A stretch of 64,000 bases of DNA from Eledone cirrhosa (Eukaryota). Under the pieces are notes generated by a model that was given only the letters and a program-made list of their open reading frames with translations, was not told the origin of the DNA and ran no database searches. The position numbers and the translations under genes are program-made. Below are positions 33,578-59,080 of this stretch, in pieces. Every line of letters begins with the position of its first letter. Position 1 is the stretch's first letter. The DNA lies in the NCBI GenBank assembly GCA_964016885.1, contig OZ024755.1, positions 13,144,001 through 13,208,000 on the forward strand. Reading direction: 5' to 3'.

Positions 33578-33862
33578 TGGAAAAATGAACATAAGCAGCT
33601 GTAGGGTTCATATGCCTTATTATTTAGACCATTTCTCTTGAGTAAAAATAATTTGATGAAGCTTCTAACTTTCTCATATATATATGTAGGAGGTGAGTTT
33701 TATTGTAGTACAATAAAGCAATGCAAATATCAGATAAGTAGCACTCTACAGTTTGTAGGACTGGAGTATAAATAATATAAGATCAAAAGATGGTTAAAAG
33801 AGTTCCAAGATTTAAAACTTCACTATTCACAAGTGTTTTTTAACCTTCATATCATGTATCCC

Positions 33863-33933
33863 TATTTTATCTGATGAAAACGCAGATATCATCTCATGAT
33901 GATATTTGTTTTTGAAATGTGCATAATAAAATA
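33863..33933 (+). ncRNA. type I hammerhead ribozyme motif (Penelope-like pLTR type) in APEH intron 1
   Basis: Stem I TATTTTAT/ATAAAATA, CTGATGA (33871-33877), 16-position stem II with 15 pairs, GAAA (33914-33917), self-complementary stem III ATGTGCAT, AUA cleavage triplet ending at 33925. Confidence 0.8.
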
Positions 33934-57524: not shown

Positions 57525-57983
57525 GTAATAACAATATTGGCTGTCATTTGATAAGATTGGCTTTTGGCAACATTTACCATGTATACTCGAATATAAATTT
57601 AGGAATATGTGACCAGGTCGGCTTATATCAATATATATATCAATATTTTGATGATTTTCACCAACTTCAAATTCTACGTAGATAAGGTTTGGATTTTTCC
57701 CCATTTTTCAAACATAAAATAGTGGGGTCAGCTTATATTTGATTATATACAATAGTTTTTAAAAGGTCATCATTTTCATCATTATTACCACCACCAGTAA
57801 CACCGATACAATCATCACCACCACTACAATCACCATCACCATCACAACCATCATAACTATGTCTATGCAGGAACTGGTACGAACCTCTTTCATTTTAAAC
57901 AATGTTTTCTTTACACAAATGTGGTGTTCTTTTTTGTTTTGTTTTTATAGGCTTTTACTATATATTTTGTTTATTTTTACCAG

Positions 57984-58090: not shown

Positions 58091-58210
58091 GTTTGTTAAT
58101 TCATGGCAGATTTTTATTTTTCTTATCTTTAATTTATGGATAGAGTTGTAGTTAGATGAAGTATATATATATTTATATATATATGGTTTTTCCTGGCGGC
58201 AGCATATCAA

Positions 58211-58320
58211 TAAATCGGATTTCATCTGAGGATACCGTTCTCATAACAACAACAAATGCATGAAAGACTTCTCGATTGCATGGAGAATCGTGGAAATAGT
58301 TATAATGATTAAACGATTTA
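58211..58320 (+). ncRNA. type I hammerhead ribozyme motif in the last APEH intron
   Basis: Stem I TCAT/ATGA plus distal TAAATCG/CGATTTA, CTGAGGA (58226-58232), stem II TACCGTTCTC/GAGAATCGTG, GAAA (58293-58296), stem III ATAGTTAT, AUA triplet ending at 58304; flanked by TA repeats. Confidence 0.75.
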
Positions 58321-58343
58321 TGTAACATCAGCATTTTATTTTG

Positions 58344-58395
<52 letters not shown>

Positions 58396-58570
58396 CAATG
58401 AAAACAAAAGGCAAAGTTAAGTGCTTAATCAGCTTGTTGTTTTATGACTGTTTTAGAAGGTTGATTGATCATGATAAATCAATACAGTAACTATTCGGTA
58501 GTAGTTATGTAACTCCATAACATTGGTTTCGATATGATAAATCCATCTCCCCATCTTTTATATATATCTG

Positions 58571-58784
58571 CTAGCATCCGGCCAGAATTTTCTCGCTACT
58601 TTCTGTTCAAACTGGCCATAACTGGTTGCTAAATACTGTCGGTATGGTATTGTTCTCAAAATAAATTATAACATCATCAATATCTTGTAGATTCGATATT
58701 ATGAGAGATAATTATATTAGATAAAAAGCCTTTACTTCTAAAATACAATATTTTAGAAGTATAATGTAAATGCTAAACGGTTAA
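58571..58784 (-). mobile_element. piggyBac-type MITE, left end eroded
   Basis: Same family, ends AATGCTAAACGGTTAA. Confidence 0.75.
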
Positions 58785-58828
58785 TGCTCTAATAATCTTC
58801 TCTATTTTTCTCTCTCTCTCTCTTTCAG

Positions 58829-58931
58829 ATTTCTATCCTATGCTGAAAACAGTCACCCACTAAACAAAGTAGATGCAGAAGCTGATGCCTTTGTCAACAT
58901 TGTTTCTTGGTTCTGGTATTACATCTGTTGA
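58829..58931 (+). CDS. APEH: APEH last exon with catalytic His (FLSYAENSHPLNKVDAEADAFVNIVSWFWYYIC*)
   Basis: ttcAG acceptor, His codon at 58854-58856, TGA at 58929-58931. Confidence 0.96.
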
Positions 58932-59080
58932 CCTGTGGAATATATTTCTTAAATCCCTGCTAATTCCTCTAGCAGCTTTGCTGGTTTGCTGATTTCCTCC
59001 CTGTTCTACCTTTGCCCTACCTACTGAAACCTGCAGCAGCACCACCAACACCACCACTACCACTTCTCATTAAAACAAAA

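Follow-up and report, generated by a model that had tools for sequence, protein, structure and literature searches.

A type I hammerhead motif in the last APEH intron of Eledone cirrhosa, very probably a truncated fragment of a Penelope-like element

The window analysed here is a stretch of 64,000 nucleotides (64 kb) of Eledone cirrhosa DNA. Its exon 34255-34482 matches acylamino-acid-releasing enzyme (E = 2.7e-5), which identifies the host gene as APEH. The last coding exon matches residues 700-727 of the enzyme weakly (E = 0.12) and its histidine aligns with residue 707, which we take to be the catalytic His. The intron preceding this exon contains a hammerhead motif in the sense orientation, and a sequence-only reading of the window had proposed that cleavage there would separate the exon of the catalytic His. 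The locus raises the question of whether the motif is a genuine hammerhead, how it entered the intron and whether the gene is affected by it.

Architecture of the motif

The features of the locus, including the hammerhead of another Penelope-like element (PLE) in intron 1 of the same gene, are as follows.

33863..33933, + strand: the other APEH hammerhead (intron-1 motif), of another, younger PLE family that shares the architecture
58091..58828, + strand: last intron of APEH (GT..AG), in which the fragment lies, from a spliced contig and the sequence
58162..58184, no strand: left (TA)n run, putatively part of the insertion target
58187..58350, + strand: 3' fragment of a Hydra-clade PLE, truncated 5' (pLTR region, optional tail absent), from family comparison
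58211..58225, + strand: helix I, 5' strand (distal part 58211-58217, internal loop, proximal part 58222-58225)
58226..58232, + strand: core CUGAGGA (C3-A9), from the sequence
58233..58292, + strand: helix II region, 60 nt (U·G, A-U, C-G, a C·C mismatch at 58236/58289, then 6 pairs)
58293..58296, + strand: core GAAA (G12-A15.1), from the sequence
58296..58303, + strand: helix III word ATAGTTAT (family word ATAATTAT)
58304..58305, + strand: predicted scissile bond, after A58304 (AUA triplet), placed by the hammerhead consensus
58305..58320, + strand: helix I, 3' strand (proximal part 58305-58308, loop TTAAA, distal part 58314-58320)
58351..58392, no strand: right (TA)n run, putatively part of the insertion target, also reported by TRF
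58829..58931, + strand: last APEH coding exon, His codon at 58854-58856

The motif has a true type I architecture, as had been claimed. The segments C3-A9, G12-A15.1 and U16.1-H17 lie between three helices, and the open end is in helix I. The cores and the site are found where the sequence-only reading placed them (CTGAGGA at 58226-58232, GAAA at 58293-58296 and the ATA triplet at 58302-58304). The interrupted stem I, with TCAT/ATGA at 58222-25/58305-08 and the distal TAAATCG/CGATTTA at 58211-17/58314-20, is present too, and so are the TA runs on both sides of the insert. Two details of that description require correction. The self-complementarity attributed to AUAGUUAU exists through two G·U pairs only and is not fully Watson-Crick. 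Stem II does open with U·G, but part of its supposed large loop can pair, since three pairs, the C·C mismatch and six more pairs can form (58233-42/58283-92). The U·G opening is no defect of this copy either, 34 of 66 family copies having U·G and 26 having U·U at the same position.

A strict descriptor finds two matches in the window (33871 and 58226) and none in 150 composition-matched simulated windows, both strands included, a contrast that is overstated because the descriptor was written after the motifs had been seen. The simulations speak against a chance match in an AT-rich repeat without ribozyme ancestry. Such a match would be in keeping with the Rfam hammerhead models, which give the motif no score at the gathering threshold or at E<=10 (two irrelevant chance matches and nothing else appear at E<=10), and with its weak folding z-score of -0.5 to -0.9. 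The pair probability of helix III in the monomer is 0.0 in all four contexts folded, and only a dimer helix is possible.

The dispersed family and its element

Copies of the 166-bp insert are dispersed, with 1803 first-look candidates, of which 40 were scored, and 51 matches. Near-full-length family matches are 88-96% identical to it, and the closest dispersed copies 92-96%. A family alignment was built from 94 HSPs, 67 of which span the motif and were kept. The core (11 core bases and H17) is intact here, as it is in 45 of the 66 other copies, and its intactness is therefore no sign of domestication. A multicopy family that keeps the core, on which the sequence-only reading had staked the motif beforehand, was thus found. 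The copies terminate in TA runs or close to them, a further tail of about 100 bp is carried by 16 of 67, and a head-to-head inverted partner is present at 11 of the 40 scored places. On walking 5' of the insert the number of candidates drops from 1803 to 340 and then to 73, as 5' truncation predicts. Directly behind the TA run of one family copy there is an unrelated high-copy repeat (L015:1300-1500; 1031 candidates, 93-98% identical).

The sequence shared 5' of the motif enters a decayed ORF on the same strand, with an RT thumb, a linker and a GIY-YIG endonuclease. These domains were assigned through motifs and by eye against the alignment of PMC8557442; Pfam gave zero matches for the pieces of the PLE ORF or their homologues. 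At locus L064/L071 the RT thumb, the endonuclease, a UTR of about 1.15 kb and a 94.6% identical motif are found in one piece and on one strand, and in 20 of 30 family loci the motif lies downstream of the endonuclease. An RT followed by a GIY-YIG endonuclease, with a sense-strand hammerhead in the 3' repeat, is the arrangement of EN+ PLEs, whose 5' truncation, inverted 5' copies and optional 3' tail are also seen in the family. The linker, CNCRNPSNC, has the form CxCX5C, and CxxC and CxH are present around conserved E and N. According to Craig et al. (2021, PMC8557442), the Hydra clade has (TA)n targets, a sense type I hammerhead near the 3' end and, at the C terminus, a GIY-YIG domain with CxCX5C, CxxC and CxH. 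Judged by its protein motifs and (TA)n target, the element that supplied the motif is a Hydra-clade PLE. Assignments to Neptune and Naiad were dropped because the endonuclease is C-terminal and has Hydra-type motifs. TRF reports no tandem unit at the motif, and the tandem units, each with a hammerhead, of a non-LTR retrozyme were not found there.

A full-length intact element of the family was not recovered, and the N-terminal motifs RWK/DKT were not seen among the recovered loci. RWK/DKT is present in the ORF behind the hammerhead of a sister family (locus L107), and RWR/DKT in the homologue P0002. The homologue search yielded six proteins among 476 candidates, 41-49% identical, one of them from Argonauta hians.

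The endonuclease of the sister family has 50-56% amino acid identity to that of the family described here, and the insert has no blastn match to the sister family. In 16 of 20 loci the latter carries a hammerhead of its own at a distance of 1.26-1.59 kb behind the endonuclease, with TCAC/GTGA as helix I and ACATGTGT as helix III. In the family of the intron-1 motif (1699 candidates, full-length matches 96-99% identical), 3 of 15 fetched loci have the hammerhead about 1.16 kb behind an endonuclease with 43% identity. The two APEH motifs had been called unrelated; this holds for the primary sequence, but the architecture is the same and both stand about 1.15 kb behind homologous Hydra-type endonucleases. 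That sequence-unrelated PLE families have this architecture at the same place but build it from different base pairs effectively refutes a chance match, the probability of which we regard as very small. Because sequence-unrelated families carry the hammerhead behind the endonuclease, it is, as judged by this cross-family comparison, selected within the element. Within the family of the last-intron motif the core is conserved to 0.968, compared with 0.885-0.91 in the loop and flanks. This excess was rejected as a proof of selection, since the flank values contain subfamily differences and alignment noise. Among 66 family copies, 53 have A-T and 10 have T-A at the distal helix I pair 58213-58318.

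State of the intronic copy and splicing of its host

Two rare changes weaken the fold of the copy in the last intron. T58288, a position occupied by C in 62 of 66 copies, changes a G-C pair of helix II to G·U. At 58299 the copy has G, where A is found in 63 and G in none of the 65 other copies that have a letter there, and the palindrome is broken. Helix III is palindromic in the family (ATAATTAT in 54 of 66 copies) and remains so in this copy by way of the two G·U pairs. At 37 C the helix III homoduplex amounts to +0.4 kcal/mol, against -2.6 for the family word; at 20 C the word of this copy pairs with itself through G·U at -2.05 kcal/mol. The 64-kb window contains no second copy of the same family, and the predicted pairing with the helix III word of the intron-1 motif is negligible. 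A predicted hairpin with GUUCUCA traps the core in the 121-nt motif (p about 0.99), and in the fold of the whole intron the probabilities of helix I and helix II are near 0. The competent fold is 6.4 kcal/mol less favourable than the ensemble, a larger gap than in 23 of 31 scorable copies, where 32 of the 67 copies could be scored in a model without tertiary contacts, dimers or proteins. This penalty is a weak argument because the family median is also high (4.95).

Folding is much more favourable for the intron-1 hammerhead (z of -2.9; its competent fold is 2.6 kcal/mol above the ensemble), which on these predictions is the better candidate for activity. An inverted fragment (33767-33813) lies beside it, and the helix III of the intron-1 hammerhead is ATGTGCAT in the window and ATGCGCAT in 11 of 15 loci. 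Both sense hammerheads of APEH have a change from a Watson-Crick pair to G·U in the dimer palindrome (58299 and 33919). The paired changes could reflect selection against active intronic copies, or chance, as there are only two cases and the intron-1 variant occurs in two other loci.

The splicing of the last intron is documented by contig 9 of sequencing run X4 (3253 nt, depth 42), which joins 58090 to the last exon and the 3' UTR and also lacks the preceding intron; as one assembled contig from one run that is not on record as RNA, it attests the presence of the spliced form and not its efficiency. Read ends at 58262/58264 and 58300 were considered as marks of cleavage and rejected. They stem from RAD-seq DNA and fall on ATGCAT and the AATT of the family, which are presumably restriction sites of the RAD-seq enzymes. 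Further high-copy repeats, of very high read depth, are found in the last two introns and the 3' UTR (57600-57750, 58440-58500, 58575-58790 and 59030-59065).

The proposed effect on the exon of the catalytic His is not upheld by these results, which describe a passenger fragment with two weakening changes, no partner of its family in the window and a spliced mRNA containing the last exon. A domesticated ribozyme, limiting full-length APEH by severing the last intron, would agree with the sense orientation, the intact core, the place upstream of the His exon and the second sense motif in the gene. Against it, the copy is a young repeat with close dispersed relatives, and its rare changes weaken the fold and do not improve it. 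Two motifs in one gene are to be expected, because related motifs occur about once per 60 kb; the counted patterns give at least 1.1 motifs per 64 kb and P(>=2) = 0.30. Moreover, spliced mRNA is present, and introns cut by a slow hammerhead can still be spliced (work cited in PMC2995048). We regard domestication as highly improbable.

The motif is not a product of chance, but neither is it an APEH-specific device. It is very probably a type I hammerhead from the 3' end of a PLE, a lone truncated fragment in the TA repeat of the last APEH intron that is likely to cut rarely or never. In transcripts of an intact element, two hammerheads in tandem or inverted arrangement would pair their 8-nt palindromes to form a shared helix III, the protein of the element possibly helping, and the dimer would be cleaved after AUA. 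The copy in APEH would have arisen by target-primed insertion at (TA)n with 5' truncation, followed by neutral decay. In this copy helix III could not form without a partner, and the core would be held in the competing hairpin. The reading of the fragment as a near-silent passenger is also based on the behaviour of its relatives. A single PLE hammerhead of S. mansoni does not cleave and its dimers or multimers cut weakly (PMC4209133), while the Anolis PLE hammerhead cuts only with the protein of the element, and RNA-seq ends at its site were not seen (PMC11167929); the splicing of introns cut by slow hammerheads points in the same direction. APEH itself is most likely unaffected by the motif.

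Occasional cutting in trans, or with the help of a PLE protein, has a small probability; the exons would be spliced anyway and the output of APEH would be unchanged. Since the 11 core bases and H17 are intact, the sequence is compatible with catalysis. The helix III word still pairs with itself through G·U, protein help has been demonstrated for another PLE hammerhead, and run X4 holds short pieces of other family members along with spliced contigs. The missing cis partner, the negligible pairing predicted with the intron-1 word and the predicted misfolding all weigh against such cutting.

The helix II mismatch and comparison with known hammerheads

A survey of 168 loci (579 kb) for hammerheads whose helix III is self-complementary over 8 nt and whose helix II region has at least 20 nt gave 82 distinct motifs in 14 clusters. 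The helix II region is 26-78 nt long across the clusters. Pairs 2 and 3 of helix II form in all 14 clusters with varied bases, and pair 1 forms in 11 of 14, so that the first position, which varies within the family of the last-intron motif, is variable across clusters too. At position 4 a pyrimidine-pyrimidine mismatch, in most cases C·C, is found in 12 of 14 clusters, or in 10 of 12 without two clusters that came only from loci fetched with a mismatch-demanding pattern. Two clusters and one further family do not fit the mismatch pattern.

Genome-wide, the ATATATAT helix III class with C·Y at position 4 has 47,306 matches (5 in the reversed control), compared with 659 for C·R (control 53) and 2,397 for a non-C base (control 113). 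The C·Y mismatch is found in 47,306 of the 50,362 matches of the class, counts that are dominated by a few large families, in clusters that share ancestry; the exceptions among the matches listed are mostly single-base variants within the same families. The difference from the reversed control is a further argument against a chance match in the APEH intron. At least 50,000 hammerhead-core matches have the ATATATAT helix III, and 1,195 have ATARTTAT. The further family that does not fit (G000:C1:13104527-13104600 and similar) has the ATAATTAT helix III with helix II unpaired in the same register, and at loci L120 and L126 hammerheads with a short helix II, one of them of the published minimal type, coexist with the long-helix class.

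The hammerheads with C·Y at pair 4, a variable pair 1 and an 8-nt self-complementary helix III are likely an undescribed subtype, since a search of incomplete coverage found no description of a C·C or C·Y mismatch in helix II in the hammerhead and PLE literature. Taken alone, the subtype is somewhat favoured as a selected structural feature, and comparison of the sequences suggests that the conserved C·Y is likely a selected docking or protein-contact site. The genome holds at least ten sequence-divergent clusters in which one non-canonical feature is kept and the surrounding pairs have changed. The mismatch clusters allow a mutational study of the activation of slow PLE ribozymes. This abundant class would escape descriptors requiring G10.1-C11.1 or a short helix II. 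There is a slim chance that a PLE protein or a partner RNA switches on the C·Y subtype and that its 50,000+ copies, many of them intronic, act as latent cut sites in host pre-mRNAs, including that of APEH, when the elements are expressed; cleavage of host RNA with an effect is the unlikely part of this proposal.

The amniote intronic hammerheads HH9 and HH10 are single-locus and deeply conserved. They are similar to the motif in APEH in that both are sense hammerheads in an intron and have an extended helix I with an internal loop. Unlike them, the APEH motif is part of a young multicopy repeat, lacks a helix III as a monomer and receives no score from Rfam.

Non-LTR retrozymes, as described in bioRxiv 10.64898/2026.07.22.740005, are tandem repeats with at least two ribozymes, and about 43% of their copies in Xenopus are intronic. 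The type I hammerhead, the origin from a PLE pLTR and the frequent location in introns are shared with them; the APEH insert, unlike them, is a single fragment. Cervera and de la Peña (2014, PMC4209133) described minimal PLE hammerheads located in pLTRs and present as thousands of dispersed single copies from truncated PLEs, with inverted pairs 100-700 bp apart, a palindromic helix III and a dimer model. The pLTR location, the dispersed truncated copies, the inverted pairs and the palindromic helix III are common to these and to the family of the last-intron motif. In the consensus of that paper a base after A9 is unpaired, the pair G10.1-C11.1 is conserved and helix III mostly has 4 nt. The APEH motif has neither the unpaired base nor G10.1-C11.1, and its helix III is an 8-nt palindrome. 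The optional 3' tail is also longer here, about 100 bp compared with the 30-40 bp described for PLEs.

The Hydra-clade motifs listed in PMC8557442 have helix II regions of about 12-26 nt and show, by eye, no C·Y at pair 4, compared with 60 nt and the mismatch here. The 3' UTR of more than 1 kb likewise distinguishes the present element from the Hydra motifs listed there, and six short motifs from the families studied were not found in its supplement, in which line breaks could hide them. In other respects the Hydra-clade hammerheads of Craig et al., including that of Hydra-1_Obim from Octopus bimaculoides, have the same group features as the motif in APEH. The ORFs of the family resemble the published alignment by eye, and the published hammerheads are often without G10.1-C11.1 too. 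Common to both are a short, near-palindromic helix III and a first helix II pair that is often not G-C.
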